Below, one piece after another: positions 1-32,753 of a stretch of 64,000 nucleotides of DNA. The notes under the pieces are model-generated. The model ran no database searches. It was given only the letters and a program-made list of their open reading frames with translations, and had not been told where the DNA came from. This DNA is from a virus (taxonomy: Duplodnaviria; Caudoviricetes): positions 160,001 to 224,000 of IMG/VR virus record IMGVR_UViG_3300028735_000004. One strand, 5' to 3'. Each line of letters starts with the position of its first letter. The stretch's first letter is position 1. Position numbers and translations under genes: made by a program.

Positions 1-209
1 ATTGCTTGAGCAAGAGCAAGTTTGCCTTCTTGGGTCATGATTGCACGTGCAATTAATTCATCGCGTTTAGCTTCTGGAAGACCTGAAGCAAGACCTGCGT
101 TTGAAGGTAAATTATCTTGCATTACTGAAGCAAGTTTGGCTAAAGTTTGCATTGCATCTCTTACTGATGAGGCGTTTAATTCGCCTTTTGAGTTAAAAAT
201 TTCAGACAT
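1..209 (-). CDS. Major capsid protein, N-terminal part (runs off the left edge; not in ORF track)
   Basis: ATG at 209 with GGAG SD. Manual translation gives MSEIFNSKGELNASSVRDAMQTLAKLASVMQDNLPSNAGLASGLPEAKRDELIARAIMTQEGKLALAQA(M). Codon usage looks highly expressed (cgt/gct/gca). It lies downstream of the protease-scaffold and decoration genes, and EGKLALAQAM resembles N-termini I recall from large-phage capsid proteins. Confidence 0.7.
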   Translation of the reverse strand, partial: MSEIFNSKGELNASSVRDAMQTLAKLASVMQDNLPSNAGLASGLPEAKRDELIARAIMTQEGKLALAQA

Positions 210-237
210 ATATGTTCTCCGTTAATTGAATTTATTT

Positions 238-265
238 GCCAGTTTCCCAGCGGTATAAAAATACC
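238..265 (-). promoter_or_regulatory. Two tandem hairpins in the capsid gene leader
   Basis: Minus strand GGTAT-TTTT-ATACC is followed directly by GCTGG-GAAA-CTGGC (GNRA loop, two G-U pairs), about 30 nt upstream of the MCP start. Confidence 0.5.
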
Positions 266-294
266 TACTTTAATATTATATTATTACTATATGT

Positions 295-1719
295 TTAAAT
301 ATTTTTTTCAATTTGTTTTTTAAATTCATGTTTTAATGTATTTAGAACTTCTTCAAAATATTCATTTATTTCTTTATCACTAAGATCCTTTTGATTTAAT
401 TTGATTTTACCAAATATTAGATCTTTACTTTTATTCATATAGGAAATTATTTTAAATAATACCATCTTCATTAATGCATTATAATCTTTAATATGATTAT
501 AATTTATATCATACTTAATACTATTAATTACATGCGGTTCAATAAATCTACGATAAAAAATATAATTATCAGTTTTCATTAGATAATAAATTCTTCTACT
601 TACCTCATTAAATCTTTCATTTTTTGTTAAGTGAGAAAAATCTTCTATGCGTTTTTCTTCGTAGCCTCTGGTTTGAACCGGATTGTCTTGATACGGTAAT
701 TCTTCTGGCTCGATATCTAATTTTTCCGGAGGTATTCTATAATTGTCTATATTTATTTCATCAATATAATAAACTGGTAAAGAAGTGTGTTTAGATAATT
801 TTTCTCTAAAAATCTCTAAAATATCATTATTTTCTTCTGGATACATCCTGTTAATTACAATTATAGGCTTTTTGTTTTTCAATCCAGTGATAAACCTAAC
901 AATTGAACGATAAACCATTTTAGGACCTTTGCCTTTAAAGTCCTTACCGGAAGTTAAATAAATAATACCAACATACTTACTTAATATACTTCCTATTAAA
1001 CTTTTATTATATTCTTCATCTTCCCATTTTTGGCAACTGCTAATTCCTCTCTCTGACATAGTACAAAGATCCCAGGCTCCCTCTTTATCTGCACTGAATA
1101 CAACTTCCATTTTAGAAATAGGTACATTGATTGAACTAAAATTTTTAAACGCTTCTAATTTTTCTATTTGTGGTAAATTGAACATACCAAAACTTTTATA
1201 CAGCATTTCACTTATTTTATTATATACTTTTATTAAACTTTGATCTTTATGGAACACTAATTTTTGATTTATATTATCATATATAGTATCACCTAAAATT
1301 AAGCTCACAGTTCCATCTTCATTTTTTACAATTTGATTCAATGGATTACTTAAAATTACATTGAACTTAAGTAATAAATTATACACTGTTTCTTGTTCAG
1401 GAGAAAATACACGATCCCAAGGTTCAAGATCTTGTTTTTCAACATAAAGTGTTTCCTGATACCTATCAAGATCTTTGCATTTTTCACTAACAATACTTTT
1501 AATTTTAGAAACTAAAGATCTTGCTGATTCTAAAGCATCTAAATTTTCTATATTAGAATCTACCTTTTCTCTAAAATTTTTTAAACCGAAATGTTTGAAT
1601 ACCTTATCTACTTCTTTAATATTTTCAAACGCCTTATGTTCTTTAATCCATTCTGGCATTTCTTTATCTTTGAAAACATCTAATGTTGCCAAAGAATATA
1701 ATAAATAAACATAATTCAT
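295..1719 (-). CDS. Hypothetical protein (474 aa)
   Basis: Long ORF with a conserved-looking core DLCTMSERGISSCQKW...VGIIYLTS...RSIVRF...IVINRMYP. Function not recognised. Confidence 0.75.
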   Translation of the reverse strand: MNYVYLLYSLATLDVFKDKEMPEWIKEHKAFENIKEVDKVFKHFGLKNFREKVDSNIENLDALESARSLVSKIKSIVSEKCKDLDRYQETLYVEKQDLEPWDRVFSPEQETVYNLLLKFNVILSNPLNQIVKNEDGTVSLILGDTIYDNINQKLVFHKDQSLIKVYNKISEMLYKSFGMFNLPQIEKLEAFKNFSSINVPISKMEVVFSADKEGAWDLCTMSERGISSCQKWEDEEYNKSLIGSILSKYVGIIYLTSGKDFKGKGPKMVYRSIVRFITGLKNKKPIIVINRMYPEENNDILEIFREKLSKHTSLPVYYIDEINIDNYRIPPEKLDIEPEELPYQDNPVQTRGYEEKRIEDFSHLTKNERFNEVSRRIYYLMKTDNYIFYRRFIEPHVINSIKYDINYNHIKDYNALMKMVLFKIISYMNKSKDLIFGKIKLNQKDLSDKEINEYFEEVLNTLKHEFKKQIEKNI

Positions 1720-3870: not shown

Positions 3871-3885
3871 AAAATAATATATAAC

Positions 3886-3915: not shown

Positions 3916-3935
3916 ACAACCTAATTAATTAAATT

Positions 3936-4601: not shown

Positions 4602-4653
4602 TGTATTTTCCTTAAAATTTTAAACTTACATCTTGAACTTACTAAAATCTATT

Positions 4654-4682: not shown

Positions 4683-5891
4683 TTATTTTTTAAATTTTTC
4701 TAATATATCTTTAACACTTGGATCTAAATCTAAATCTTCATCTTCTTCACTATCGATAGTAGCTGTTTCTGTAGATAGTGTGCTTTTTGGCCCTTTAGAT
4801 GGAGCGGATGGGGCCTTAGCAACTTGTTCGACTTGACTTTCTGCGTGATCTACATAATCAATTAAAGTTTTAATGTGAGATACCATTTCTTTTAAACTAT
4901 CTTTTAGTGTTAAAAGAGCATTATCTACATCTTCAAAATCATCTGAAACCACAGTTCTATATACTTTATATAAATATTGAAGCCAATTTGGAGATCTTTC
5001 GTCAACAGACCTTTTGATGTGATCTATTTGATAAATCCAAACTTGAATAGAACTTTCTATTTTTTCAACTAATTCATTGTGTTTTTTAATAAACTCAATA
5101 TCTGATTGAAATTTTTTATTTTCTTCTGGACTTAATTTTTGAATTTCAGAAATATTAACAAAGTTGATGCTTAATTTGTTAAAAATTCTTGTAGAGTTTA
5201 TTAACTCAGATAAAACCTTTTTAATTGAACTAAGCATAGATCTTGCGTTTGGTTCTTGTTGCACACTATCTTTACTTAATAAATCATCTATTTCCGCATT
5301 AACTTTTTCGGCATCATTCTTGACGCCTTGAGATAATGGCCTGGCGTGATTGATCCAAGCGGCAGCCCCAATAACAGCGGCTACTCCAGCTGCAGCATAC
5401 CAAAACCAAGCTTTTTTCTGAATTTTATATTGATCTAATTCATCGATGCAGCTATCCGCTAATACTCTTAATTCATCATTATCAATCGCATCCATATGAT
5501 TTGCTGTTTTAATTAAATCTAATAACAATTCTTGTTTTGCATACTTATAATGATCTAAATATCCTTTATTTGGTTTTAATGCAACATAAGTCATTACATT
5601 GTGTCGTTCATTATTATTTTCAACCAAACCGTTCATCTTGTCATATGATGGAGCGATAATGACCGCATTAGGATGAGCTTCTTCTATAATATTATATTCG
5701 TATTCTTGACCTTCTGGTTTAACTCCATATAAAGCTTCAATAGTTGAAATATCATCTGAACCAACTCTTGGGTATGGTTCTTGCTTTTTATATTTTTCTA
5801 AATCTTTAGGTTCTGCTTTTTTAATGATACCTTTTTCAACCATTAAATCTGCATAATTTTCAAATATTTCGCTTTTGGGTAATTTTGGCAT
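4683..5891 (-). CDS. Putative internal head/ejection protein with EAHP module, helical-hairpin motif and hydrophobic segment
   Basis: NIIEEAHP...GLVE...RH; LIKTANHMD...LAD; KKA directly before WFWYAAAGVAAVIGAAAWI; acidic C-terminus. Confidence 0.55.
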   Translation of the reverse strand: MPKLPKSEIFENYADLMVEKGIIKKAEPKDLEKYKKQEPYPRVGSDDISTIEALYGVKPEGQEYEYNIIEEAHPNAVIIAPSYDKMNGLVENNNERHNVMTYVALKPNKGYLDHYKYAKQELLLDLIKTANHMDAIDNDELRVLADSCIDELDQYKIQKKAWFWYAAAGVAAVIGAAAWINHARPLSQGVKNDAEKVNAEIDDLLSKDSVQQEPNARSMLSSIKKVLSELINSTRIFNKLSINFVNISEIQKLSPEENKKFQSDIEFIKKHNELVEKIESSIQVWIYQIDHIKRSVDERSPNWLQYLYKVYRTVVSDDFEDVDNALLTLKDSLKEMVSHIKTLIDYVDHAESQVEQVAKAPSAPSKGPKSTLSTETATIDSEEDEDLDLDPSVKDILEKFKK

Positions 5892-5914: not shown

Positions 5915-6883
5915 TTAAGTGATATTTTTTGCCGCATCATAAGCAAAACTATCAATAATATCTAAAATTGACTCAAATGGTTGCGGTATAACAAGAAAAG
6001 ACGACGATGATTTGTTTGATGATTTTATTAAACTAATTGTATTTCTAAATTTTGAAGATTTATTAATTGCATCATTAGTTAAAAATGGGTAAATGATTTT
6101 TGCCCATTTAATCAACTGTTCCTCTAAATTAGATAAAGTTAATCCTTGTTGTATCCAAATATTACTGTCATCATTTTTGTGATAAGCTGTTAATTCAGAT
6201 GGTATATTAGGAGATTTAACTAATTTTTGAGCAACATTTGGATCTACTTCAATTTTGGTATCTTTATCTTTACCAACTGTTTTAGATATTGCTGCACCTA
6301 CAGCTGAAAATCCTAATGCTTTAAATGCTGTTTTAATAATCCAAGAAAGAGAACTCATTAAGAATTTAAATATTTTATCTTTAAAAGGTCTAATTACACT
6401 TAGTCCAGCTTTACCTAAAGCTCCAGAATTTTTAACAAAAGATGACATTAAATAAACATCCCTGCTGCTTACTTTAACTTGCTCTAATTTTTCTTCGTCT
6501 TCTGCACCAGAAATATTTTGATTAAATGACTGGCTAACAGCATTATCAACTTTGCTAAAATCTACCTGTTTTTCATCTGTATCTACGGCAGATGTTAAAG
6601 AACTTCCTATAGACGCGATAAAACCTTGTGAATCCCACCCTAATGCTTCAGCAATTGTCCAAATTGCTGATAAAGGGAATGGCAGCATTCCTTTTAAAAA
6701 AAAATCTATAATAGTTGCAACTGGATGTTTATGAAAATCTTCCTTGATTTCATTAAAATAATTCATAACAAAATCTTTAATAATAGAAGATAAGCTCGCA
6801 TCAGCTTTTTTATGCAAACAATACTGATTTAATAAAGATACTAATTTTTCTTGATGATAATATTTTACAAGACCTTTACTCAT
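5915..6883 (-). CDS. Hypothetical head-cluster protein with hydrophobic/amphipathic segments
   Basis: FFLKGMLPFPLSAIWTIAEALGW and FKFLMSSLSWIIKTAFKALGFSAVGAAI. The 4-nt overlap with the neighbour suggests translational coupling. Confidence 0.55.
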   Translation of the reverse strand: MSKGLVKYYHQEKLVSLLNQYCLHKKADASLSSIIKDFVMNYFNEIKEDFHKHPVATIIDFFLKGMLPFPLSAIWTIAEALGWDSQGFIASIGSSLTSAVDTDEKQVDFSKVDNAVSQSFNQNISGAEDEEKLEQVKVSSRDVYLMSSFVKNSGALGKAGLSVIRPFKDKIFKFLMSSLSWIIKTAFKALGFSAVGAAISKTVGKDKDTKIEVDPNVAQKLVKSPNIPSELTAYHKNDDSNIWIQQGLTLSNLEEQLIKWAKIIYPFLTNDAINKSSKFRNTISLIKSSNKSSSSFLVIPQPFESILDIIDSFAYDAAKNIT

Positions 6884-8259
6884 CTATACTTCGAGGCAGC
6901 CATTTGAGCTCTGTTCCTCGCTCCAGTTTCCATATCATTAGCAAATCTCATATATTTTTGATATAATGATAATTGACCATCTATTAATTGGCTAATTCTT
7001 GGATTATCCATTCTTTCTTTATATTCTTGAAGATAATAAGAAGTTGTATTTAAAATTTGTTTTAAAATATTTGCTAAAGCTTGAGCATTATCAAAATTCT
7101 TAATATCATAATTTGCTAACAAATTATCAACCGAATCAGAGCTAAAAGATAATTGCGGAATACCATCATCTAATGAATTGCCGACTCTATCAGTCCATTC
7201 TCCACTATATTTTATAAAATTATTATATAATGTGTTTAAAACAGGATTATCTCCCTTTGTTTTTTTCATAAAATCATTTATTCTACTAAACCGCAAACTA
7301 TTAGGTACAAATGGTAAAGATGTAGAGAGAGATTGTAGTTGTTGAACTTCCGCTGAATCCTGAGAACTATCAATTGTTGTTGTAGATGTATCACTATAAG
7401 ATTTTAATAAATCTCTAATTATCTTTAAATAATAATTTTTAATTGCTTCATCTAATTTTGCCAAAGCTCTTTTTTCTAAATATTTTAGGAAATACACAAT
7501 ATTTGGCACTGTATCTAATTTTATCTGATTATCACCTTGTTTTATAGTAATTTGTTTATATAAATTACCTATATTAGATGAACTAAGTGTTTCTGGAGTA
7601 ATTGGTATATTACCTTCTTGTGTGTAATTTACGGTTCCATCCGCAATTATTACTGATGGAATTTTATCTAAAATAGTCTTTGCGTCTAGAGCTGTTTTAC
7701 CAGATATTTCTTGTGGTGTTTTATCGCCATCCAATTCGATAGTTGCTGGTTCTATATTAATATCGTAATCTTTTAGATCTTGATTTGCTTTATTAATTAA
7801 TTTATTCAAAACATCTTGAGTTAATGGATTATTTTTAAATTCTGTTTTTAATTTTTCAATAAAATCAATCAAACCTTCTTTATAAATTCTACAAATGGGC
7901 ATATCATTAATAAATTCAGAAGATCTTTTATATATAAAATATAAATCTTTAGGAAAATTCTTTAATTCTTCGTAGGTTTCTCCGACAGGACCGCTAAGCA
8001 CTATTGGTAAATTATTATATTTTATTTTATTTTGTTCCAAAAATGTTATTAAACTATCTAATGAAGTTAGATCTTTTAAATACATTTCAGCAGAAGTATC
8101 AGAAGAAACATCAACTTGATTTAATAAATTATCAATTAATCTTAGAGCAAGTTGTTGCGTTTCAACTTCTCTTGTTTGAGCTGATTTATACAAAGAATCA
8201 AATAAACCTGATTCAATTATTAATTTACCTAAAACTTCTAGTTCAAAAAGAAAAGACAT
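6880..8259 (-). CDS. Hypothetical head-cluster protein (459 aa)
   Basis: Long ORF in a coupled operon; KSAQ near the N-terminus. Confidence 0.7.
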   Translation of the reverse strand: MSFLFELEVLGKLIIESGLFDSLYKSAQTREVETQQLALRLIDNLLNQVDVSSDTSAEMYLKDLTSLDSLITFLEQNKIKYNNLPIVLSGPVGETYEELKNFPKDLYFIYKRSSEFINDMPICRIYKEGLIDFIEKLKTEFKNNPLTQDVLNKLINKANQDLKDYDINIEPATIELDGDKTPQEISGKTALDAKTILDKIPSVIIADGTVNYTQEGNIPITPETLSSSNIGNLYKQITIKQGDNQIKLDTVPNIVYFLKYLEKRALAKLDEAIKNYYLKIIRDLLKSYSDTSTTTIDSSQDSAEVQQLQSLSTSLPFVPNSLRFSRINDFMKKTKGDNPVLNTLYNNFIKYSGEWTDRVGNSLDDGIPQLSFSSDSVDNLLANYDIKNFDNAQALANILKQILNTTSYYLQEYKERMDNPRISQLIDGQLSLYQKYMRFANDMETGARNRAQMAASKYR

Positions 8260-8261: not shown

Positions 8262-9269
8262 TTAAAATCCTGGTTCAGATTGAAGAACTGTTTGTGTAGC
8301 ACTTAACTGTTGTTTCATATTTTCTAAAACTTTTTTAATGTTGGCAGGGCTCGTATCTTGCCCTAATACTGCTAAAAATTCTTTAAAATTCTTTAAACTC
8401 ATTAAGTGCTTTATTCTTGGTTGTTCTGGCTTGCCTCCAGATTCTAATCTAACATTTTCAACTATTGCGTTTTGATGTTGTTGGGCATTTGTGAAATCTT
8501 GTTTAGATATTTGATTTTTACCTATAGATAATAATGGTTTTTCTTGACTTATAAGATCTTTGAATTGAGGGTTCTCTAATACATTTTGTTCAAATTCTTT
8601 ATATAAACCTTCTATTTTTTTAATAAATTGTGTTGCTTTAACAATATCACCTAATTTAGAAAAAGATAATGATTGAAATTGAGCTAAGTCAGCATCAGTA
8701 AAAGACTTTGATTCAAGACCCATTGTTTTATTGAAATTAATTATTCCGGATGCAAATCTTAATGCATTAATTAACGCCGTTGCTGTTCTTGCTCCAAATA
8801 ATCCGTCCGGTTTTCTTTCAATTCCTCTTTCACCAGATCCTTTGCCTACGAAACTAATTGCATTAATTAAAGATCTAATATCTAACGCCGGTGTTTCGCT
8901 AACTTGTTTTCTTAAAGGTTGTAATAATGGTTCTTTGGTTTCTAAATGAGTAAAAGTCAAATCTTTTTGAATAAAATTATTTAATAAATAATTATTAAAA
9001 GCATTATGACCATAACTTGTTGGTGTCATAGATGCAAATGTATGACTTGAAATAGTTTTTGCTAAATCAATTAACGCTTGTTGCATATCCATTACGGCCT
9101 GATTAGCTCGCTGTGATACTATGGGAGCCACCTGTTTAGTTGTAGCCGGGACTTCTTGTTTTTGTATGGACGGAGGCGCTTTTTGTTCTACTAAAGTAGA
9201 TTTTATTTTTCCTCCCTGTAATGAAGGAGGTAAATCAAAATAATCTATACTTTGAGATATTTTTTTCAA
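8262..9269 (-). CDS. Hypothetical head-cluster protein with a peptidoglycan-binding-like motif
   Basis: TTG start with GGTG SD. PDGLFGARTATAL resembles the DGxxGxxT motif of PG-binding domains. Confidence 0.55.
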   Translation of the reverse strand: MKKISQSIDYFDLPPSLQGGKIKSTLVEQKAPPSIQKQEVPATTKQVAPIVSQRANQAVMDMQQALIDLAKTISSHTFASMTPTSYGHNAFNNYLLNNFIQKDLTFTHLETKEPLLQPLRKQVSETPALDIRSLINAISFVGKGSGERGIERKPDGLFGARTATALINALRFASGIINFNKTMGLESKSFTDADLAQFQSLSFSKLGDIVKATQFIKKIEGLYKEFEQNVLENPQFKDLISQEKPLLSIGKNQISKQDFTNAQQHQNAIVENVRLESGGKPEQPRIKHLMSLKNFKEFLAVLGQDTSPANIKKVLENMKQQLSATQTVLQSEPGF

Positions 9270-10426
9270 ACTTCACCTTCTTCAAACCAAGATTTTTTAA
9301 TATTATTTAATATAGATAAAAATCGACTATTTACATCATTATATTGTTTTTCCAATTCTTCCGCTCTATCAAATCCAAAAAGTTCTTTAAATTTTAATTT
9401 ATTAAATCTTAATAATTCTACTTTGTTAGATAGTAAATTTTTAATTATTTCATTAGTATTAATGTAGCTGTTTAATTTTTTATTTAAATCATTTCTTATT
9501 TTAGAAATATAACTTAACGCATCTTTTTCGTTTGATGGTAATTTATTTTCTATATCTGCAAATTCCGTATCATATTTTGATAAATTAGAAATTTGCTTTT
9601 CTACATTAAATTTTACTTTTTTAATCTCATTCAAATAATCCTCTGGAGAAATGGTTTGCGTAGTTATTTGAAAATTTTCAATTATTTTTATAGATTCAAT
9701 ACAGGTTGATTGTAAATTATTAATTTGTGTAGATATCATTTCATAAGATGATGAATTAAGATATTTTTTATTTGATTCTATTTTATTATTATATAATTTA
9801 ATAAAAGCAAGAATATCACTAATATCGGCGGCGACGCCCTCTGCCGATTTAAATTTTTCAACAGCATTACTTAACTGATTAAAAATCTTATTTAAATTAT
9901 AAGTCCATCTATTTAAAATATCGGTTATATTTGGTCCAATAGATAATGTTTGCCCCTTAAACCTAAATCTTTCTATATTTAAAAATTCTCTATGTTCTCT
10001 GGCAGATTTAAGTAATGCTGAATGGGCCGTTTTAAAATCTTCAAATGATGCACTAATATCACCCCTTGCTTGTTGCAAAGCATCATTTATAGTATATGCA
10101 TTAGATGTTTTAAATGATGCAGTTTTATTTACCTTTTTTTTTGGATCTGTTGATACTACATCAACAATTTTTTCGTGTTGAGATAAAATAGTTTCAACAT
10201 CACCGTGATTATCTTTAGCATCAAATAATTTAACATCACCTTTTGGATGCGCCTCATTAATTAAATCTTCACCGGTTTCGTCGATAACATTATATAAAGA
10301 TGTTTCGGCTAATTTAAATGCAGCCAATTTTTGTTCAAGATTGTCAGCATATTTGTCAAAACCTGATTTTCTTAATTTTGAACATAAAACTAATAAATTT
10401 TGATATAACATATTATCTTTAGCCAT
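9266..10426 (-). CDS. Putative internal head protein (helical-hairpin plus EAHP modules, coiled-coil C-terminus)
   Basis: LCSKLRKSGFDKYAD; LINEAHPKG...GDVE...QH. Confidence 0.6.
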   Translation of the reverse strand: MAKDNMLYQNLLVLCSKLRKSGFDKYADNLEQKLAAFKLAETSLYNVIDETGEDLINEAHPKGDVKLFDAKDNHGDVETILSQHEKIVDVVSTDPKKKVNKTASFKTSNAYTINDALQQARGDISASFEDFKTAHSALLKSAREHREFLNIERFRFKGQTLSIGPNITDILNRWTYNLNKIFNQLSNAVEKFKSAEGVAADISDILAFIKLYNNKIESNKKYLNSSSYEMISTQINNLQSTCIESIKIIENFQITTQTISPEDYLNEIKKVKFNVEKQISNLSKYDTEFADIENKLPSNEKDALSYISKIRNDLNKKLNSYINTNEIIKNLLSNKVELLRFNKLKFKELFGFDRAEELEKQYNDVNSRFLSILNNIKKSWFEEGEV

Positions 10427-11255: not shown

Positions 11256-12083
11256 TTATTCTTCATCTTCCCAATCTTTAGTATCTTTTACAAGTTTTTT
11301 TAATAAATCATCAAACTCTTTATCTTGTGCCCAATTATCATCGGCATCATTATCATCAAAGAGATTATCATTATCCTCATCATCACCAAATGGATCATCG
11401 CCTTTGTAAAACATAGCTTTTTCCCATTGTTCTGGCAAATGTTTATCATCTGCACTTACATCTTCTTCAGATAATTGATCTACGCTTTTGTCAAAAATTT
11501 CTACATCTGTATCAAATTTACCATCACTGGCATCATTAGTGTCGTTAAAAACCCAACCTTTTTCTTTAAGGTTTTTTACCATTTTTTCGCTTGTTAATTT
11601 ATCTGTTTTAGATTTGTCTTTTTTGACTACTTTTTTAAGATCTTTTTTGGTTTTAGATTTATCTTCTTTTTTATCTTTTGCTTTTTTCTTTGCCTCAACT
11701 ATTAAAGTATCAGCTAATGTTATTGCGTATGCAGATAATTTATCGAAACCAGCAATATCTAATTCTTCAGAAGCTTTCAATAAAGAATTAAGAGCTACTG
11801 ATACCATATCCGCTTCGGCATTTAAGCCAGGATTACAATCACATCCTTTTTCGCAATCTCCTGGCTGACAAGAACAAGGACCCTCGCTCATTTTAGCAAA
11901 TTTACCATCACAACCTTTACAAACATCGGCTGCAGAGGAGGTTAATTCTTGTTCTACTTCAGATACATTTTCTTCCGATACTTTATTGAAAGCAAGTTTT
12001 TGCAACATTGCTGATTTGGAAAACATATCTTTATTTGCTTCAAAGGCATCTACCATTAAAGAAGCTATATCATATTTTTTCAT
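11256..12083 (-). CDS. Hypothetical head protein, possibly scaffold/internal (Cys cluster, basic patch, acidic tail)
   Basis: CKGC..CSC..C..GCDC, LLKASEELDIAGFDKLSA, a K-rich segment and a D/E-rich C-terminus. Directly downstream of the protease gene. Confidence 0.6.
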   Translation of the reverse strand: MKKYDIASLMVDAFEANKDMFSKSAMLQKLAFNKVSEENVSEVEQELTSSAADVCKGCDGKFAKMSEGPCSCQPGDCEKGCDCNPGLNAEADMVSVALNSLLKASEELDIAGFDKLSAYAITLADTLIVEAKKKAKDKKEDKSKTKKDLKKVVKKDKSKTDKLTSEKMVKNLKEKGWVFNDTNDASDGKFDTDVEIFDKSVDQLSEEDVSADDKHLPEQWEKAMFYKGDDPFGDDEDNDNLFDDNDADDNWAQDKEFDDLLKKLVKDTKDWEDEE

Positions 12084-18952: not shown

Positions 18953-20556
18953 CAGTTCCCTATTCTAAAATTCTTTTGCATTGTTTTAACAGTTAATGTT
19001 TTTTGATACGCAGAAAATCTACATACTACTCTAAATGTCGCTTTCTGATTAGGTAATTCTAAATTTATAGATTGTAAATCTAATGATGTTAAAATATCTA
19101 CATATCGATCTTTAGGATTACTATCATCATCAACAGGAGATATTTGTATTACTAAACCTTTTAAAATTGAATTTTTGATAGCAGGAATTAATTTGTTTTT
19201 AAATTCATATGGTAAATCAGATATTTCTATATTAAAATCATCTAATCTTTTGATAAAAATTTGTGCTAAATGATCTTCTGCCGCAGAAGTTATACGAATA
19301 TTTTTAATATCCTTTAAAATTTCAACATCAGATAAAAATTGATTAACTGGACCTATTGGTAATTCAGTTTTTGTCTTTAATTTAGTTTTCGGTTTTTCTT
19401 CAATTACCTCTATGTCCTCAGGATCAATTTCTTGTGGTTTATCTTGATTTTCTACTTTTTTTTTAAGAAAATCAAAAATACCAGCTGTCTTGTTTCTTTC
19501 TTCTAATTTTTTAAGAGCTTCTTCATTAGCTTTTTGATCAGAAACTTCTTCTTGTTTTGAATAATCTTCTAATTGCTCTTGTGTTTCCAAATTTTCCAAA
19601 ACTTGTTTAGATTGTTCAACTAGGCTTTGTTCAGATTTAGGTTGTCTGACAGATAATTCTTTTTCTAATTGTCGTTCCTGAGATAATTTTTGTTCTTTAT
19701 ATTTCTGAGCAGCTTCTTGTTGTTGCCGCTGAATCATTTTTTGATATTCTTCTTCTCGTTTTTTTGCTTCTTCCTGTTTTTGTTTAAATTCTAATTCTTG
19801 TTTTTTAATTTCTTCTTCTAATTTAGCCTGATGTTCTTTTAATGGTATAATATTTTTATTGTAGTATTTTGTAAAACTTTTATTAAAACCACCACATTCT
19901 TTAGATAAATCCATCGATGTTTTCAAATAATTATCAACCTTACGAGTTGCAACATATCTTCCAAGATCTTTTAAATTATCAATTAATGATTTATTTAAAG
20001 ATTTTGCTTGGCTTACCAAATCAATAGTATCTTGTCGTAATTTGCCAATAAAAGAAGATGGAAACCTTTTTTCTAAGGCCTTAATTGCTAAATTATGTGG
20101 AGAGAAAAATCCGGCAAACATATCGCTTAAAGAAGAGAAGAATCCGGCATTTTTAACTAATTCAATTGATAATTCTGATTTTTTAGCTACAGGTTGATAT
20201 TTAAATAGTTCTTCTAAATGCTCTTTTTTTGGTCTGCTTAATAAAATATCATAATTTTTAAAATTTACAATATTTTTTAAAGTATCAAATTTTTCTTTAA
20301 TTGAAGAAACAGCATCATTATATTTAGTTAAATAATAAGCAGTAGTTATGTAATCTCTAAGCCTGCTTGCAGAGACAGCTTTATCTAAATTGATTTCATT
20401 TTTTTCTACAATTTTTCTAATTTCATTATCAGTAGATCTAATAATCTTCATTATTTCTCTAAATTCCGAATCTCTTAATTCTAAGAATTTACCAGAAATA
20501 TTAGATTTTTCTCTAACTTTACTTAAGAAACTTCTTCTTTGAGCGATTTTTTTCAT
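18952..20556 (-). CDS. Hypothetical head-cluster protein (coiled coil, E/Q/K-rich linker)
   Basis: 534-aa ORF directly after the portal gene, with KIAQ, KNAGFF and KTAGIF motifs. Confidence 0.7.
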   Translation of the reverse strand: MKKIAQRRSFLSKVREKSNISGKFLELRDSEFREIMKIIRSTDNEIRKIVEKNEINLDKAVSASRLRDYITTAYYLTKYNDAVSSIKEKFDTLKNIVNFKNYDILLSRPKKEHLEELFKYQPVAKKSELSIELVKNAGFFSSLSDMFAGFFSPHNLAIKALEKRFPSSFIGKLRQDTIDLVSQAKSLNKSLIDNLKDLGRYVATRKVDNYLKTSMDLSKECGGFNKSFTKYYNKNIIPLKEHQAKLEEEIKKQELEFKQKQEEAKKREEEYQKMIQRQQQEAAQKYKEQKLSQERQLEKELSVRQPKSEQSLVEQSKQVLENLETQEQLEDYSKQEEVSDQKANEEALKKLEERNKTAGIFDFLKKKVENQDKPQEIDPEDIEVIEEKPKTKLKTKTELPIGPVNQFLSDVEILKDIKNIRITSAAEDHLAQIFIKRLDDFNIEISDLPYEFKNKLIPAIKNSILKGLVIQISPVDDDSNPKDRYVDILTSLDLQSINLELPNQKATFRVVCRFSAYQKTLTVKTMQKNFRIGN

Positions 20557-20592: not shown

Positions 20593-22308
20593 TTAAGGAG
20601 CTTTAGGTGATGGAGGTGGAGTTAAATCTGGTGGAATGCCAGAAGTATCAGGAATGCCGGAAGGTTCTCCCCCACCAGATGGACCAGCTTCATAAGGTGA
20701 TTGTCCAGGTAAAGGCGGTTCTAATATTTCTGGAATATCAGCATCATCAGTTAAAGACCTTAATTCATTGAGAGGCATTTGTTTAAGAGATTCTTTCTCT
20801 TTTTCTCTAATTGCTTCTGCAATATCTTCTTTTCTAATCTTTCTTCTTTCTTCTTCCCATTCCAATCCTAAAGATCTATATAAAGTTTGTTGTGAAACTC
20901 GTTTTGGATCTCCGGTTAATTGAATTAAAAAGTTAATATAATCAGCCGCATCAAATAAGCTCATATGATTCCAGTCAATATCTGGAACTATAAGAACTTT
21001 TTTCTTATCTTTAAATTCGTAAAATTCATTGAGTTTAGAAATGGGAGCAAAAATACGACGACGAAGCCAGGTTGTCATCATATTTCTAAACTGCATATAA
21101 CGCTGTCTTAATACATCAAGAGATATACCACCGTTAGCATATGTAATATCTCCACCACCTTCCATAACTACTTGTGGTACCATTAATCCAATATAAATTT
21201 CTTTAATTAATTGCGTAATATCTCCTGAAATATCATAAATACCTTGACCAGAACCTATTCTTTCTATAGATACCTGATCGTGAGTAATGATTTTAAAATC
21301 TTTATCATATTGTGCTTGTTCTATCAATTCTCTCCAAGCTTCAAGATCTGCCGGAGTTGGCTTATATTCAGTACCTGCCCCTCCAACTTTAACAAGAGTT
21401 AAAGGATTAATCATATTAGCGGCTTGTGCAAATTTAGATTCTCTTAATAAATCGAATAACATTAATTGTCTAAATACAGAAACTGGAAGCCCAGTGCCTC
21501 TATGTGCATATGGGCTTATTTTTCTTGCCAAATGTGAAACATAAAAATTATCAAGAGGTATATTTTCGCCTCTTCTTACTCTTTCAATTATTGCCGGATT
21601 TAACTGATTTCTTTGTTCTATGTCGGATGGATTATTTGACATTACTATCTTGCGTAAATTTTCATCCGGTCTTAACATAATTAACGGCTCATTTGCTATA
21701 ACCGTTTTTTTAACAACTATATAATCTGGATTTTGTATTGCTAATCTACTCCATTTTAATGATTTTGAGTCTAACTCCGCATATACAAAAGCTTCACCTA
21801 ACAACCAATATTCTTGAGCAACTTGAACACAAATATTCATTAAATCTATTTCTTCAATCATTTCATTAAAGAAATCTTCTACTTTTTTATTTGGACATTT
21901 AATGTTTAATTTACTAATAGGATATGTGCTATGCAAATTAATAGCGTTTTGTACTATGGGATTTAAGGCATAAAATGATCTGCACCAGGCATTTATTGTA
22001 GCCTGGTCTCTTGGTAAATTAAGATTTGAATTAAGCCATAATGGAGAATAAACTTCAGGCGTTTGTCTTACAGTTCCACCTGAACCTTGCCAAGAAGTTC
22101 CAGAACTACTGCTGGCTAATTGAGCATTTTTAACAATAGTTGAATATGATGCTTGTGTTAATTCATTTTTGTTTTTAAGATTACCAGATCCATCCTTAAA
22201 TAAACCGGCCTCTACCTCTTCTCCAAGTGTTTCTCGCCTATATTGGGAAACGGATTTATACATTAATGGAGTAATTGATGGTACATATTTTTTAGTATTA
22301 TCTGACAA
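20593..22308 (-). CDS. Portal protein
   Basis: Follows the large terminase. Motifs RSFYALNPIVQNAINLH, AQEYWLLGEAF, YAHRGTG and TLVKVG; Pro-rich C-terminal tail; TTG start with GGTG SD. Confidence 0.8.
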   Translation of the reverse strand: MSDNTKKYVPSITPLMYKSVSQYRRETLGEEVEAGLFKDGSGNLKNKNELTQASYSTIVKNAQLASSSSGTSWQGSGGTVRQTPEVYSPLWLNSNLNLPRDQATINAWCRSFYALNPIVQNAINLHSTYPISKLNIKCPNKKVEDFFNEMIEEIDLMNICVQVAQEYWLLGEAFVYAELDSKSLKWSRLAIQNPDYIVVKKTVIANEPLIMLRPDENLRKIVMSNNPSDIEQRNQLNPAIIERVRRGENIPLDNFYVSHLARKISPYAHRGTGLPVSVFRQLMLFDLLRESKFAQAANMINPLTLVKVGGAGTEYKPTPADLEAWRELIEQAQYDKDFKIITHDQVSIERIGSGQGIYDISGDITQLIKEIYIGLMVPQVVMEGGGDITYANGGISLDVLRQRYMQFRNMMTTWLRRRIFAPISKLNEFYEFKDKKKVLIVPDIDWNHMSLFDAADYINFLIQLTGDPKRVSQQTLYRSLGLEWEEERRKIRKEDIAEAIREKEKESLKQMPLNELRSLTDDADIPEILEPPLPGQSPYEAGPSGGGEPSGIPDTSGIPPDLTPPPSPKAP

Positions 22309-24252: not shown

Positions 24253-24846
24253 TTATTTAGTTGATGGTTCTAATAATTCAAACGGATCGTAATTTTCATC
24301 ACCGTCAGTAGAGGTATCAATTTTTCCTAAATTTAAATTTACTTCTTTATTTTGAGGATTATTTTTTTCTACTTCTATAATTTTATTATTAATATAAACT
24401 CTAACATCATTGGGAACATCAAATTTATTATCTAATTTTTCTTGAATAGATTTGATTTTTAATAAATCTTCAACAACTGCTTCTGGAAATGCGGTTGGTC
24501 TGCTTTCAACATAATTATCTATAAAGATTTTCATTTCAGGTATTCTGCTGAATATTTCTGGCTCTTTATGAGTTAATGATGAAGATGCTTGTTTTTTATT
24601 TAAGAATTCTAATAAACCAGTTCTTTTTTGCATATCTAATACTGCTTCTTCAACACTGGAATATTTTGATTTACGATTACCTAATATTTGATTAATTTCA
24701 TCAAATATGACGGCATCTTGCACTTTTGATTTTACTGCACTTTTCTCTAATTCAGAAATAAAATCATCTAACCATTCTGGCTCGTATTTATTGCCTTCAA
24801 AAGTTATATCATCTCTTGAAAAAATAGAATTATTATATCTGCTCAT
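24253..24846 (-). CDS. Hypothetical head-cluster protein
   Basis: 197-aa ORF in the operon upstream of the terminase. Confidence 0.7.
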   Translation of the reverse strand: MSRYNNSIFSRDDITFEGNKYEPEWLDDFISELEKSAVKSKVQDAVIFDEINQILGNRKSKYSSVEEAVLDMQKRTGLLEFLNKKQASSSLTHKEPEIFSRIPEMKIFIDNYVESRPTAFPEAVVEDLLKIKSIQEKLDNKFDVPNDVRVYINNKIIEVEKNNPQNKEVNLNLGKIDTSTDGDENYDPFELLEPSTK

Positions 24847-27185: not shown

Positions 27186-28781
27186 TTAAACTGCTTTTGT
27201 TGGTACTGGTGCCGAGGTAGGAGGAGCTGGAGCTGGTGTAGGTGTAGGAGCGACTACTTCGGTAGGCTGTTCTGCTAATTCCTGTTGAACATTTTCTACA
27301 GCAGGTTTTTCGCCATCTAATTTATCTACTAACTCTTTATCTCTAACTTTTTTCTTCATATCTTTTAACTTAACTTCTTGTTCTCTTTGTTGTTTGATTT
27401 TATCTCTTAAAGCTTTTTGTTCTGGAGTTAAGTTTAATTCAGTTTTTTCTCCAAGTAAATCAATTTCAGATACACCTATGGAGCCTCTAAGAGAGGATAA
27501 AATACCTTCGATACGACTATTAACATAAGTAGAAGCTTCTAACATTTTATGTTGAGCTTCGGGTAATGACGGGAAGAATGAAGCTAAACCTAATTTATTT
27601 AACATAGCATCAATTATTGCTAATTGTCTGCTTATTTCTCTATTTTTAAATAAAACATTAACTTCTTCTAATTTATCAATTACATCTTGAATTGTAATAT
27701 CAGAGAAAGCGGCATCAATCAATTCATCAAATTTTGACTTAGGTTCCCTTATCCAGCCTTTTTGTTGCTCTTGTTTTTCAGGAGCTACGGCCGGTTCTAA
27801 ATTCTCTTGTGATTTTACCGGAGCACTTTCATTTAATTGTGCTTCTACAAATAATTCATCATCTTTTTCTAAAGGCAATATTTCTTGTTCTAAAATTATT
27901 TCATCTTCTACTGAATTAAGATCGGTAATACCAGATGTTTCTAAATTATCTATAAAACCAGCAATACCTTCAAAAGATTTTTCTTTTTTATCTTTATCTA
28001 AACCTGGTTCAGTTAAATCAGGGGTATTATTTGGTAATGTTCCTTTACCATCTATTTTACTATCTAACGGTAATGGGCCTTGATTTGCGTTAAAATTGCC
28101 GGGGGTATTTTGTGATAATTTATAAACAAAATCTGCAGATTTTATAAATCCTTGATTTTTTAAAATATTTGATTGTCTTATAATTAAATCATTATAAATG
28201 GAATTGGCAAAACTATTTTTATTTACTATTTGTATTTGTTTTTTTAATTCATAAATAGAATTTAATAATTTTTCAAACTCTGAACCAGCAAAAATTTGAC
28301 CATCTTGAGAAGATAATAATTTTTCAGCAGAATGTAATCTTCCTAAAATTTTTCTGCGCTGCTCTTCTATAATTCTTCTTTTTTCTTCTTTATTTAATGC
28401 TTGTTCTTTATTTGAGATTACCGCATTTTTAGCTTCAGTAGAAACATTATTAATATCTTTTAATGGGCTGGGTGGAATAAAAGAAGAAGGTGCAGGATTA
28501 GGTATAAAATAATTAGGTATATCTTCACTTACATAATAATTATTTTGGGCCGTTTTATATTTTAAGTGTTCTTTGCCTTCATAAAATTTCATCCAATTTA
28601 GAAATGCAATTTTCTCTAATTTATCCCAATTTATAGTACATTCATTAACGGCATCATTTTTGGAAGATCCCATATGAATGCGCATATAAACTTGTTTCAT
28701 AACATCTACCCACTTACTTATGTCATAAGCTGGTTTAGATGTTCCTGGATCACTATAGTTTGGATAAGATATTTTATGCAT
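27186..28781 (-). CDS. Hypothetical head-cluster protein (531 aa)
   Basis: KTAQ, LKNQGFIKSAD hairpin motif, acidic linkers and a Pro/Ala tail. Confidence 0.7.
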   Translation of the reverse strand: MHKISYPNYSDPGTSKPAYDISKWVDVMKQVYMRIHMGSSKNDAVNECTINWDKLEKIAFLNWMKFYEGKEHLKYKTAQNNYYVSEDIPNYFIPNPAPSSFIPPSPLKDINNVSTEAKNAVISNKEQALNKEEKRRIIEEQRRKILGRLHSAEKLLSSQDGQIFAGSEFEKLLNSIYELKKQIQIVNKNSFANSIYNDLIIRQSNILKNQGFIKSADFVYKLSQNTPGNFNANQGPLPLDSKIDGKGTLPNNTPDLTEPGLDKDKKEKSFEGIAGFIDNLETSGITDLNSVEDEIILEQEILPLEKDDELFVEAQLNESAPVKSQENLEPAVAPEKQEQQKGWIREPKSKFDELIDAAFSDITIQDVIDKLEEVNVLFKNREISRQLAIIDAMLNKLGLASFFPSLPEAQHKMLEASTYVNSRIEGILSSLRGSIGVSEIDLLGEKTELNLTPEQKALRDKIKQQREQEVKLKDMKKKVRDKELVDKLDGEKPAVENVQQELAEQPTEVVAPTPTPAPAPPTSAPVPTKAV

Positions 28782-28790
28782 AGCCTTATA

Positions 28791-29571: not shown

Positions 29572-29584
29572 AGTACAATATATA

Positions 29585-30283
29585 TCATTTATTCATTCTT
29601 GATTCACGGGTGCTAAAAGTCATTTCTGATGGAGTTCTTTTATCCAAAAGACTTTGATTTTCTGTTGCGCCACCTGGTACTTTATTACCTTTTAAAGTGG
29701 TAAATCCAGTTCTAAAATTATAAACTTTATTATCTAAACTGCAACGCCAAACATCTTCCCCTATTCTTTCTACTTGCAATCCTGGGTGATCTGGGCAGGT
29801 TCTTGTAGATAGTGGGGCCTCAAGAGTAATATATTGTTTCCCAGCTTCGCTTTTCTCTATGGCTTCAACGGCTTCAGAAACTTTACTGTCTTGGTGTTGT
29901 CTATCTAAAGTTTGATTATACTTTTTTTTTAATTCTTCTATTTTATCTTCTTCTGCTTTTTTAAATTGAGCAACGGCATCTTTAGGCGCACCTATTGTTA
30001 ATAATATTTCATCTAAAACTGATGCTATTTTTAATAAATCAGGATCTCCACTATTATCAAAAGCGGTGGCAAGTTGAGCAACTTCATCTAAATCTGATGG
30101 AGCAAGCCCTTGTTCCATTTGCTCTAATTCAGAGGCGCCTTTTCTTAATTCTTCAGCCGCTAAAACTAAACTTTCTGCAACTTTATTTAAAACCTGATCA
30201 TTATCTTCAACACTATTTAAAATTTCATTATCAGGATTTTCTAACCAGCTGGCTAATGCTAATAGTTTTTTATAAGATTTCAT
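29585..30283 (-). CDS. Hypothetical protein with helical-hairpin motif and C/H cluster
   Basis: LATAFDNSGDPDLLKIASVLD; RTCPDHPG...WRCSLD. Confidence 0.7.
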   Translation of the reverse strand: MKSYKKLLALASWLENPDNEILNSVEDNDQVLNKVAESLVLAAEELRKGASELEQMEQGLAPSDLDEVAQLATAFDNSGDPDLLKIASVLDEILLTIGAPKDAVAQFKKAEEDKIEELKKKYNQTLDRQHQDSKVSEAVEAIEKSEAGKQYITLEAPLSTRTCPDHPGLQVERIGEDVWRCSLDNKVYNFRTGFTTLKGNKVPGGATENQSLLDKRTPSEMTFSTRESRMNK

Positions 30284-30642
30284 TTTTTACCTAACTGCAA
30301 AGTTGATTTAATAAAAGTGGTATAAGCATCTTGTATTAACTTAATGTCATTTATTAATTGAGATTTTGTATTTAAATATACGCTATTAAAATCAGGACCA
30401 GGAGGAACATCTTTTTGTTTTCTAATGGTGTTAATAAAATTAGTAATAGATTCTTTATCGTTTTGAAGTTGGCTTAATGAATTATAAAAATTATACAATA
30501 TATATGCCATCTCTAATAATTCATTTCTTTTATCTTTTGTATCCTGAAGTATTGCAATTGGAGGAGGACCGCCTTTAACAGGACTCCATTCTTGTTTTTG
30601 AGCAAGTTTTTTTAAAAATATAACTCTATCTTTAATATTCAA
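30280..30642 (-). CDS. Hypothetical protein
   Basis: 120-aa coupled ORF with KLAQ near the N-terminus. Confidence 0.6.
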   Translation of the reverse strand: MNIKDRVIFLKKLAQKQEWSPVKGGPPPIAILQDTKDKRNELLEMAYILYNFYNSLSQLQNDKESITNFINTIRKQKDVPPGPDFNSVYLNTKSQLINDIKLIQDAYTTFIKSTLQLGKK

Positions 30643-30649
30643 TTGATCC

Positions 30650-32284
30650 TCAAAAAAGAATTTTGCTTGTCATACTTAATGCGCTTCCAGCATCCTCTAT
30701 ATTCTTTCTGTATAATGGAACACAATTACCATTCTTATCTTGATAAACTTTATTTATAGGTAATCCTGTATGACCACAGATTGTTTGTGTGCTATGCGCG
30801 TGTTTAACTTTCATATTACAAGTATTTTGCGGTTTTTCTTTTTGATTTAAACAATCAATATAAGTAGCAAACGCTGATTTATAAGCGTTTTCATATGCAA
30901 ATTTATCCGGAGTATCTTCTGAGGATTTTGCTAAAATAACATTAAGAGCATCTTCTGCTTTCTTTAAATTACCTTCGGCCATTGATTTTTCAACAATATC
31001 AACTAAAGCCCCAGGGTGTAAGGGATATAATGATGATATCGATGATGCCGCTTTATAATCAAACGATAATGAAGTTGATAATCTTGTTAAACCTTCTTTA
31101 TCAAAAGTTTCAATAGATCCGTTTGATACGATAAATGGAGATAATTCAACATTATTTCCACTTATTTTAACAGGAGTAGTAAAAACAACATTATTTGCTT
31201 TTACTGTAAAAGAAACATCATCATCTCCTACATCTGATAATGACATTTGATAATCTTTTATACCTAATTCATTAAGAGCTGATTTTAGAATTTGAGATGC
31301 TTTATTTAAAGCTTGTTTTCCAAATTTAAATTCTGCTATTCCTGCTTTACTATCAAAATGTTTTGCAAAATTTAATATTTCAGTATCTTCATATTTTGGC
31401 AAATCTAAATCTTTTTGTTCTAATTCCGGGATAGAATTATAAACTACATTATTATCAAATAAACTGCCCGATGTTTCAGCTTGGGCATTTAATTTTGAAA
31501 CCGCTAAATCAACACCACTAATAGTATCTTCTTCAAGTGAAGCTAAAGCGTTTAATACTTTTTGTTCATTTACTTTTAATGATGAACCAGCATTAGATAA
31601 TATATAATTTTTAATACTATCTTCTGTTAGTTCTACCGGACCCTCATTTCCTATAAAAACTGAAGGAAATAATGGAGTTTTACCATTCATTTCTACTGGC
31701 AATAATACATTAGTTAAACCTTTAGGAGTTTCAAAAGAAGCTTTGCATAAAATGAAATGATCTTCTTTTCCTCCAACAATCGATACTTCTTTTGGTGATA
31801 TAAGTAATGAATTTAATGAATTAAAACAAACATCAGCGGCTTTTTTAGCCGTAATTGATGAATAAGCTTCTTTTTTAACGCCAAATGCTAAATTTAAAGA
31901 AGATAATAATACCGGGTCTATTACTTTATCATAAATAGAATCTAATGAAGCATCAGCCGAATCATCACTTCTATCATAGATTTTAACTTGATTTTTATTT
32001 TCAACTTGACCTAATTCTTCTGCAAATAATTGAGCAAATTTAGTATTTCTTGAATATAATTTACTATATAAATCTTTAATTTCTGCTCTAGAAATTAGAA
32101 TTTTATTTGAGTTTAACATCATTTTTTTGGTAATTTCTGACATCATACCAATACAATGATCTTCCGGATACTGTTTTGAAGCTCTGGAGAGTTTTTCAAC
32201 AAAAAGCGGCAAAGCTATTTTTTCATTATCTTCTATCATTTTTGATAATGATTCAGCTATTTTTTTAATTTCATTAAAACTCAT
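30650..32284 (-). CDS. Hypothetical head-cluster protein (544 aa)
   Basis: Long ORF with GGTG SD and a C-terminal C/H cluster. Confidence 0.7.
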   Translation of the reverse strand: MSFNEIKKIAESLSKMIEDNEKIALPLFVEKLSRASKQYPEDHCIGMMSEITKKMMLNSNKILISRAEIKDLYSKLYSRNTKFAQLFAEELGQVENKNQVKIYDRSDDSADASLDSIYDKVIDPVLLSSLNLAFGVKKEAYSSITAKKAADVCFNSLNSLLISPKEVSIVGGKEDHFILCKASFETPKGLTNVLLPVEMNGKTPLFPSVFIGNEGPVELTEDSIKNYILSNAGSSLKVNEQKVLNALASLEEDTISGVDLAVSKLNAQAETSGSLFDNNVVYNSIPELEQKDLDLPKYEDTEILNFAKHFDSKAGIAEFKFGKQALNKASQILKSALNELGIKDYQMSLSDVGDDDVSFTVKANNVVFTTPVKISGNNVELSPFIVSNGSIETFDKEGLTRLSTSLSFDYKAASSISSLYPLHPGALVDIVEKSMAEGNLKKAEDALNVILAKSSEDTPDKFAYENAYKSAFATYIDCLNQKEKPQNTCNMKVKHAHSTQTICGHTGLPINKVYQDKNGNCVPLYRKNIEDAGSALSMTSKILF

Positions 32285-32294
32285 TTAATCACCT

Positions 32295-32753
32295 TTAAAG
32301 TAGCTCCGGATATTTTTTACATATTTCTTGTCTTTTATCTTCATTTAATTCTTGAAGTAAAGCTTGAACTAATTTTTTATTTTCTGCTAATTTTTTAGGT
32401 AAATAAGAAATTGTTTTATTAAGCTCTTCTTTAGAAAGGCCTAATTTAGAAGAAGCCATTTTTGTTAAAAACTCCCCTTTATAATTAAATACTAAATCCT
32501 GTGATATTTTGCTTATACCAACCTGCCAATCAGATGCTTCTGATTTCTTTTCTTCAGTATCTTGATATAAGGCAACTATGTAATCGCCATCTTCGGCATT
32601 TTGAATTTGCCATAATTCTTCAAGATTACCATCTTTAAATCTAACTACATCAAATGCTACTTTTTCGATACGATCTTGAACATCAGATAATTTATATCTT
32701 TTTTTATCAACGGCATCTGATAATGTTTGATAATCTAAAGAAAATTTGTTCAT
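32295..32753 (-). CDS. Hypothetical protein, first gene of the structural module
   Basis: GAGG SD; AFDVVRF..LWQI..YIVALY. Confidence 0.7.
   Translation of the reverse strand: MNKFSLDYQTLSDAVDKKRYKLSDVQDRIEKVAFDVVRFKDGNLEELWQIQNAEDGDYIVALYQDTEEKKSEASDWQVGISKISQDLVFNYKGEFLTKMASSKLGLSKEELNKTISYLPKKLAENKKLVQALLQELNEDKRQEICKKYPELL

Follow-up and report, generated by a model that had tools for sequence, protein, structure and literature searches.

We found that the head proteins encoded in a stretch of an uncultured huge phage share a short motif, K-x-A, which is present in at least 14 head protein families, is conserved across the clade, and lies at disordered or linker positions. The stretch analysed (the window; 64,000 nucleotides (nt), positions 160,001 to 224,000 of IMG/VR record IMGVR_UViG_3300028735_000004) belongs to a 244-kb phage with a source contig of 243,941 bp, and 32 kb of it are best explained as the module for head assembly in a clade of huge, uncultured, myophage-like phages. 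This module encodes a polyprotein of 1120 amino acids (aa) in which a prohead serine protease is fused to a scaffold. On balance, our sequence comparisons lean towards a reading in which the fused protease cuts head proteins after the Ala of hydrophobic-x-K-x-A, and it is plausible that shared elements also recruit ('address') head proteins. The original prediction on this DNA had proposed a head-specific short code unlike the (I/L)-x-E sites of T4 and the (S/A/G)-x-E sites of phiKZ; this core was borne out, K-x-A being enriched only in head families and the Glu motifs not.

Relatives were collected from IMG/VR. A scan with a single protein as query returned no relative, and an alignment-based scan yielded 80 protease-bearing loci with 10-kb flanks. 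Together with 7 loci from other sources, these gave 19 orthologue families of 20-86 members each, in a comparison set of about 90 related head modules. Across the 19 family alignments, K-x-A was the commonest conserved gapped tripeptide (37 sites in 12 families) and K-x-A-Q the commonest conserved gapped tetrapeptide, found in 5 families compared with at most 3 for any other. Raw counts in the window gave 97 K-x-A in head proteins against 64 expected (z=4.6) and 38 in replication proteins against 47 expected; for K-x-A-Q, the corresponding counts were 11 against 2.5 (z=5.4) and 2 against 1.5. The comparison of head with replication proteins was repeated at the family level, both modules being taken from the same five complete relatives, by 1000 permutations in which composition and the clustering of conserved columns were kept. 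Conserved K-x-A occurred 22 times in head families, where 8.0±2.7 were expected, a count reached by 0 of 1000 permutations, and once in replication families, where 2.9 were expected. Conserved K-x-A-[QSGY] occurred 8 times in head families against 0.8 expected. Neither the T4-type [ILV]-x-E (19 against 16.0 expected, p=0.26) nor the phiKZ-type [SAG]-x-E (18 against 15.9 expected, p=0.32) was enriched among conserved sites of head families, and no enrichment of K-x-S or of the reversed A-x-K was seen in the raw window counts or the family-level permutation. A comparison of this kind, with correction for composition, had been named beforehand as the test that could refute the prediction; K-x-A proved head-specific in it. 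Of the K-x-[AS] motif originally described, the Ala form is thus the part that stands and the Ser form the part that does not. No published description of a phage protease with K-x-A specificity was found in the literature.

The sites follow an extended consensus, [LIVMY]-x-K-x-A-[Q/S/G/Y], and typically form a conserved island in variable flanks. Ten of the 15 conserved sites outside the polyprotein fall within the first 90 aa (p=0.0017), and K-x-A stands at the ends of short N-terminal leaders in the 322-, 459-, 335-, 534- and 275-aa proteins, the portal and the major capsid protein (MCP) (Table 1). These observations bear on the possibility that the shared elements have no role in processing or targeting, and are by-products of paralogy and of a helical, Lys/Ala-rich, scaffold-like composition, with a small open reading frame (ORF) beginning MFIK as the leftover of a duplication of the protease 5' end. 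Several K-x-A sites do lie in helices. The enrichment is directional, however, in that K-x-A shows it and A-x-K does not; it survives a permutation that preserves composition and conserved-column clustering, and the sites are islands in variable sequence concentrated near N-termini. Taking these results together with those on paralogy and on the small ORF given below, we consider the absence of any such role unlikely.

The 1120-aa protein is encoded by a single ORF and is full length in more than 100 homologues (127 full-length ones found). A prohead serine protease forms its N-terminal part and is followed by two ~93-aa repeats and a Pro/Ala linker, with the scaffold at the C-terminus. The tblastn matches of the 1120-aa protein included the prohead protease gp77 of Rhodococcus phage E3, a Gordonia phage 'capsid maturation protease' and gp19 of Bacillus phage G, the last with 34% identity to the window protease (E=7e-22); the protease region found no match among PDB sequences. 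By sequence relationship, the protease is placed in the assemblin-like clan of prohead serine proteases (S21/S77/S78/S80). H135 (in DHKSS) and S186 (in VSMGT), 51 residues apart, were invariant in 29 diverse homologues, and we infer that they are the catalytic residues. Within the protease domain, a Cys-x2-Cys...Cys-x-His insertion (C196, C199, C210 and H212, all four invariant; 14820-14870, minus strand) separates the putative catalytic Ser from the C-terminal strand; it may be a zinc site, which would be unusual among prohead proteases. The C-terminal part of the polyprotein is helical in an AlphaFold2 (AF2) model, and phage G encodes the corresponding part separately as gp21.

Conserved K-x-A sites occur in the polyprotein at aa 383, 476, 628 and 1082, and at aa 898 and 956 on the flanks of a module, named AHP, that is described below. 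The repeat-start motif of the YFQGGGGVNEPTPG type, which follows the first two sites, occurred 89 times, always within the 1120-aa family. The tandem repeats as a whole (13809-14309, minus strand; ~93 aa each), with the pattern K-x-A-YFQGGGGVNEPTPG...KDPL...DKQMVGQ...VDG.HP...ELERKKMLARA, are very well conserved throughout the clade, whose members have one copy or two, and were seen in no other family. The site at aa 628 is a conserved island amid variable sequence, and the site at aa 1082 is followed in the AF2 model by disorder (aa 1087-1104) and then a terminal amphipathic helix. Tested for the presence of motifs, the polyprotein has its protease N-terminal to the scaffold and x-A|S-like motifs both after the protease and near the C-terminus. 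Cuts at K-x-A, with Ala at P1, would remove the N-terminal leaders of head proteins. Cuts at the polyprotein linkers would free the protease from the scaffold and dismantle the scaffold, and a cut 36 aa from the C-terminus would detach the C-terminal tail of the scaffold.

The AHP module is shared by the scaffold and two further head proteins of 402 and 386 aa, for which 193 and 6 homologues were found. The tetrapeptide EAHP occurs exactly three times in the six-frame translation, each time in a head gene (aa 71, 58 and 912 of the 402-, 386- and 1120-aa proteins, respectively). A hidden Markov model (HMM) of the module, built from orthologues of the 1120-aa family with the window protein excluded, matched the 386-aa protein (E=4e-9), the 402-aa protein coming next (E=0.1). 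By hhalign, the 386 and 1120 families aligned with P=3.9e-6 over 53 columns, and the best local profile-profile alignment of every family pair fell on this same segment. Furthermore, the 386 and 402 families aligned over ~340 columns (P=1.2e-11), which makes them paralogues over their full length and reduces the independent lineages with the module to two. The joint alignment reads K-x-A, LY, ϕϕ-x-x-A-H-P-x-G, a loop, (PS)-x-D, G-x-V-E, x-ϕ-x-E-x-H and P-x-G-K-x-A, that is, ~55 aa with a G-x-V-E core and K-x-A sites on both flanks. No fourth module family was found among 2745 ORFs with a combined module HMM. In a comparison of ungapped 16-mer pairs within the single genome, the highest score was 43, against 42-45 in shuffled controls; the modules are detectable only in comparative profiles. 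The full-length paralogy of 402 and 386, and the lack of a shared 16-mer above the shuffled controls, are what one would expect if the shared elements had no role, but the module is also present in the scaffold, which is otherwise not a paralogue of either protein.

The original prediction had described an EAHP module on three otherwise unrelated proteins, the protease among them. The three copies are real and reflect true homology; the Glu is incidental and AHP is often lost, and the 402- and 386-aa proteins cannot be called otherwise unrelated because they are full-length paralogues, the module being confined to these three families. The residue before AHP is variable, and AD.LAD stands in place of AHP itself in the majority of scaffold orthologues; the Glu of G-x-V-E, in contrast, is invariant in the scaffold family. 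We rejected 'E-AHP' as a T4-like (I/L)-x-E|A site, since the preceding residue varies without co-variation across the three families. AF2 was run on the 402-aa protein and on the scaffold C-terminus; in both models the module core has a predicted local distance difference test (pLDDT) score below 50, yet it is the best-conserved stretch. Because low pLDDT here goes with the highest conservation, the module looks in these models like a linear segment used for interaction or processing and unlike a folded domain. When the 402-aa model was compared by fold with BFVD, an uncharacterised homologue was the sole match.

The module probably lets the 386- and 402-aa proteins co-assemble with the scaffold, or be handled like it, and then be cut out; alternatively, it might be released as an internal peptide. 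Either step is a weaker claim than cleavage at K-x-A. In the 402 family, K159-x-A161 is invariant, and directly behind it comes a hydrophobic helix of 20 residues rich in Gly, Ala and Trp, WFWYAAAGVAAVIGAAAWINH (5340-5423, minus strand). If the protein were cut at K159-x-A161, the WFWYAAAGVAAVIGAAAWINH helix would become its N-terminus, as expected of a membrane-active ejection protein. These features could be joined in a more speculative scheme of scaffold mimicry with two-sided release, to which we assign a low probability. The 386- and 402-aa proteins would copy the co-assembly segment of the scaffold to enter the prohead, and the protease would cut both flanking K-x-A sites, leaving conserved ~55-aa peptides and two ~93-aa YFQGGGG peptides as internal head peptides. 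In the 402 family, the cut would turn the Gly/Ala-rich hydrophobic stretch into a new N-terminus, and a membrane-active ejection protein would thereby be armed only once it is within the mature capsid.

A second shared element is an MFIKxG N-terminus on two proteins, the protease and the 53-aa ORF directly upstream, and here the earlier description was confirmed clade-wide (Table 1). An ORF of 48-52 aa with an MFIKxG[DE] start precedes the protease throughout the clade, and the FIKxG[D/E] tag was found in 0 of 17 other families. The protease and small-protein families aligned by hhalign over aa 1-22 (P=7.3e-5). Codons, upstream DNA and distance from the initiator Met all differ between the two, and the peptide is kept. 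We rejected a DNA- or RNA-level feature as the origin of the shared start, since codons and upstream DNA diverge while the peptide stays; that the tag is kept in 38 of 39 genomes despite this divergence points to selection on the peptide, and speaks against the small ORF being a mere leftover of duplication. In addition, the MCP begins with a shifted variant of the tag, F-x-x-K-G-E.

Several points weigh against cleavage at K-x-A. Some conserved sites lie within predicted helices or well-conserved folded regions (portal aa 292, scaffold aa 814-824 and 898), so not every K-x-A can be a cut site, and the exact scissile bond would be a guess from sequence. Searches of the 1120-aa protein, which covered the protease models PF03420, PF04586 and PF20034, found no Pfam family at E<=0.1, and because it has no curated Pfam match the protease was filed at clan level only. 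The AHP module contains an invariant G-x-V-E, and a targeting role for the module would follow only from its being shared. Finally, the characterised phage proteases of the same clan, T4 gp21 and phiKZ gp175, cut after Glu. The gp245 protease of SPN3US also cuts after Glu (PMC10052503).

The window protease might likewise cut after Glu, at G-x-V-E or another x-x-E, with K-x-A acting as a docking or assembly motif. E935 of the scaffold and E91 of the 402-aa protein are invariant, VE is present at 80% or more in the 386 family, and the loop around G-x-V-E is predicted to be disordered; the look-alikes of the protease include S77 and S80, and the Glu specificity of the characterised enzymes fits. 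Conserved G-x-V-E, however, is confined to the three module families and appears in no MCP, portal or leader, the Glu motifs lack the enrichment seen for K-x-A, and it is K-x-A instead that stands where cuts to remove leaders and to release the parts of the polyprotein would be expected. We regard cleavage after Glu as quite improbable. A host enzyme could also trim the leaders. The host protease Prp trims the capsid and scaffold proteins of staphylococcal phage 80alpha, which are mimics of ribosomal protein L27, and N-terminal motifs common to a capsid and a scaffold protein are a hallmark of the Prp system. The phage, by contrast, itself encodes a conserved prohead protease, which is joined to the scaffold in one polyprotein with K-x-A sites at the linkers; the sites lie at variable distances from the N-terminus and also internally, and the K-x-A motif is unlike the L27 leader. 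Trimming by a host protease is thus highly improbable in our judgement, and cleavage at K-x-A by the fused protease is the reading that we retain.

Three of the four motifs named in the original prediction proved real and conserved in the comparison set. The fourth, a helical hairpin in five proteins, was not recovered, and no statistically supported motif common to five proteins was found. The leader of the 402-aa protein, SEIFxxxxKIAxEKGLIK, is a predicted helix-turn-helix, but it recurs only in the paralogous 386 family, where orthologues have it in an N-terminal extension; an HMM of the 402-family leader matched no family except 386, and the single-genome 16-mers were within the shuffled range. 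The N-termini of the 322- and 459-aa proteins aligned weakly with each other and with the 386-family extension (P about 0.02), with K-x-A-Q in register. The code had also been thought to extend to enzymes. A Tyr phosphatase and a lysozyme-like protein are syntenic members of the head module; their family alignments contained no conserved K-x-A island, module or tag, and the KNAQ of a CCA-type nucleotidyltransferase was not conserved in the five-genome comparison. Because the enzymes carry none of these elements, their packaging is suggested by gene position only. The nucleotidyltransferase (26247-27182, minus strand) is ~55 aa longer than in four of the five relatives, the extra part being C-terminal and following KNAQ. 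In one relative, a separate ORF lying downstream has an N-terminus that matches this part; the window gene may be a fusion.

The window has a GC content of ~28%, and nearly all of its genes are on the minus strand. Along this strand, the large terminase (TerL) and the portal are followed by genes for the 534-aa protein, the lysozyme-like protein, 128- and 220-aa proteins, the Tyr-phosphatase-like protein, a 210-aa protein, the 53-aa ORF and the 1120-aa protease, and then by those for the 275-, 230-, 386-, 335-, 459-, 322-, 402- and 221-aa proteins, an HNH endonuclease and the start of the MCP. Relatives with 250-490-kb contigs share this order, and the synteny also covers the genes upstream of the terminase, to ~34 kb. 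With terminase, portal, protease and MCP present and the gene order shared to this extent, 'head module' is a fair description of the 32 kb so labelled earlier. A megablast search with 20 kb found no match among cultured phages, and Pfam and PHROGs searches of the head proteins recognised little besides TerL, the portal, the protease, the HNH endonuclease, the Tyr phosphatase, the nucleotidyltransferase and a weak glucosaminidase match.

Homing endonucleases occupy varying spots between conserved head genes; the window has the HNH enzyme (2971-3870, minus strand), and the relatives L002 and L004-L007 have GIY-YIG or LAGLIDADG enzymes instead. In some relatives, the protease-scaffold gene is itself interrupted by inteins, seen as Pfam Hint/LAGLIDADG matches on homologues of 1450-1620 aa. 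The 221-aa (3936-4601, minus strand) and 230-aa (10485-11177, minus strand) head proteins are beta-rich and well conserved, and neither has a Pfam or PHROG family. They are possible distant paralogues with a GSGK.T.W motif (hhalign P=1.3e-3, not significant after correction) and could be decoration or auxiliary capsid proteins. Outside the head module, a 1611-aa DNA polymerase III alpha (39811-44646, minus strand) with PHP, NTPase, finger and HHH domains contains an intein with a LAGLIDADG homing endonuclease at aa ~404-845; the enzyme of four relatives has no intein (~1184 aa), and that of the fifth is interrupted at another place.

Table 1 Features of the head module, in window coordinates; fractions are conservation values or orthologue counts.
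Feature	Position (nt)	Strand	Remarks
TerL	22374-24215	-	first in head gene order along minus strand
Portal	20593-22308	-	phrog_16240, E=4.7e-55; after terminase
MCP start	209, gene exits left window edge	-	tblastn with MCP of a relative
1120-aa protease-scaffold polyprotein (P0121)	12093..15455	-	phrog_18299 head maturation protease, E=4.4e-15, aa 110-216
Protease domain, aa ~40-262	14670..15338	-	invariant columns; feature look-alikes mainly S77, S78 and S80 prohead proteases
Protease N-terminal tag MFIKLGELIELT	15420..15455	-	kept in 78/86 orthologues
Conserved 53-aa ORF starting MFIKRGDLQPIT, directly upstream of protease	15497..15658	-	tag in 38/39 orthologues
KKA-YFQGGGGVNEPTPG, start of tandem repeat 1, aa 383-399	14259..14309	-	K383, Y386, Q388 invariant
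KQA-YFQGGGGVNEPTPG, start of tandem repeat 2, aa 476-492	13980..14030	-	conserved K-x-A
KKSQ (family consensus K-x-A-Q), aa 628-631, before Pro/Ala-rich linker	13563..13574	-	K628 invariant, Q631 at least 90%
Scaffold AHP...G-x-V-E module, aa 896-955	12591..12770	-	flanks K898-L-A900 and K956-D-A958; E935 invariant
KKAG, aa 1082-1085, 36 aa from C-terminus	12201..12212	-	K 0.98, A 0.93 in 86 orthologues
386-aa head protein (P0122)	9266..10426; module 10133-10321 (aa 36-98)	-	paralogue of 402-aa protein
402-aa head protein (P0001)	4683..5891	-	193 homologues; A72, H73, E91, K159 invariant
402-aa protein leader, aa 5-27	5811-5879	-	
402-aa protein module, aa 49-112	5556-5747	-	pLDDT <50
402-aa protein K159-K-A161, then hydrophobic helix	5406-5423 onward	-	K159 invariant
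MCP leader K25-L-A27-S28	126..137	-	[ILM]-x-K-x-A-[SQA] in 11/11 orthologues
LHKKADA, K-x-A(Q), aa 25 of 322-aa protein	6797..6817	-	K 0.89, A 0.94; flank conservation 0.41
LYKSAQT, aa 25 of 459-aa protein	8173..8193	-	Q next in 43/45 orthologues
Conserved K-x-A, aa 3 of 335-aa protein			
LQKLAFNKV, K-x-A(S), aa 29 of 275-aa protein	11964..12005	-	K 0.90, A 0.96; S next in 44/82
MKKIAQRR, aa 3 of 534-aa protein	20533..20556	-	Q next in 53/53 orthologues
LVKNAG, aa 135 of 534-aa protein	20137-20160	-	K 0.93, A 0.98, flanks 0.35
IVKNAQLA, aa 60, variable N-terminal part of portal	22114..22137	-	conserved K-x-A-Q
NKKQASSS, aa 85 of 197-aa protein	24577..24600	-	K 6/6, A 5/6, five-genome comparison
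HLKYKTAQNN, aa 76 of 531-aa protein	28539..28568	-	6/6, five-genome comparison
PDLLKIASVL, aa 85 of 232-aa protein	30014..30043	-	6/6, five-genome comparison
NMKVKHAHST, aa 494 of 544-aa protein	30788..30817	-	6/6, five-genome comparison

The clade comprises hundreds of metagenomic genomes of 240-490 kb and has Bacillus phage G as a cultured relative, the nearest one for the MCP and the protease (gp14 portal, gp19 protease, gp21, gp27 MCP). The protease and the MCP core of phage G are homologous to those of the window. Its portal has K-x-A-S in the N-terminus (KMAS, aa 55), and its protease ends in a tail with two copies of L-x-K-x-A-S. Unlike the window protease, however, that of phage G is not fused to a scaffold; its MCP lacks the K-x-A-bearing leader of 45 aa, and neither gp18 nor gp19 has the FIKxG tag. 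In T4, the prohead protease gp21 recognises (L/I)-x-E sites, and a capsid-targeting sequence is carried by IPI-III and Alt. The proposed system would resemble that of T4 in having a phage-wide short code on head proteins, removal of leaders in the prohead and a scaffold cut to peptides; it differs in a motif that ends in Ala, not Glu, and in having no common 10-residue targeting sequence, the leaders of different families being at best weakly alike. The phiKZ gp175 and SPN3US gp245 proteases use (S/A/G)-x-E sites, and long N-terminal propeptides are found on many head proteins, some of them in paralogue families (PMC10052503, PMC7411985). The window phage is likewise a giant phage with many candidate substrates, mostly with putative N-terminal propeptides, and with paralogous head-protein families, and its portal and protease also contain candidate sites, although the motif is another, the protease is fused to the scaffold, and the clade is different.

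The layout of the polyprotein finds a counterpart in herpesviruses. Herpesvirus assemblin/pUL26 (MEROPS S21) is a protease-scaffold polyprotein with release (R) and maturation (M) sites of consensus (V/L/I)-x-A|S, and cleavage at the M-site frees the scaffold from the capsid protein. As in pUL26, an N-terminal serine protease, with invariant His and Ser in the window protein, is fused to a C-terminal scaffold. The candidate sites have Ala at P1 and often Ser or Gln at P1', and one site lies after the protease part and another 36 aa from the C-terminus before a terminal helix, placed like the M-site. No sequence similarity of the window protease to S21 was detected. In contrast to pUL26, the window motif has Lys at P3 and a hydrophobic residue at P5 in place of a hydrophobic P3, the linker contains two conserved ~93-aa repeats starting K-x-A-YFQGGGG, and the phage has many more candidate substrates, in at least 14 families. 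Should K-x-A prove to be the cut site, the trimmed head proteins of uncultured phages and their mature N-termini would be predictable from sequence, and the leaders or modules would become candidate tags with which to load foreign proteins into capsids. Ala-P1 specificity and a protease-scaffold layout, both herpesvirus-like, would then occur together in a large, widespread clade of huge phages, in contrast to the Glu-P1 code of every characterised large myovirus, and the link between phages and herpesviruses in capsid maturation would be tighter.

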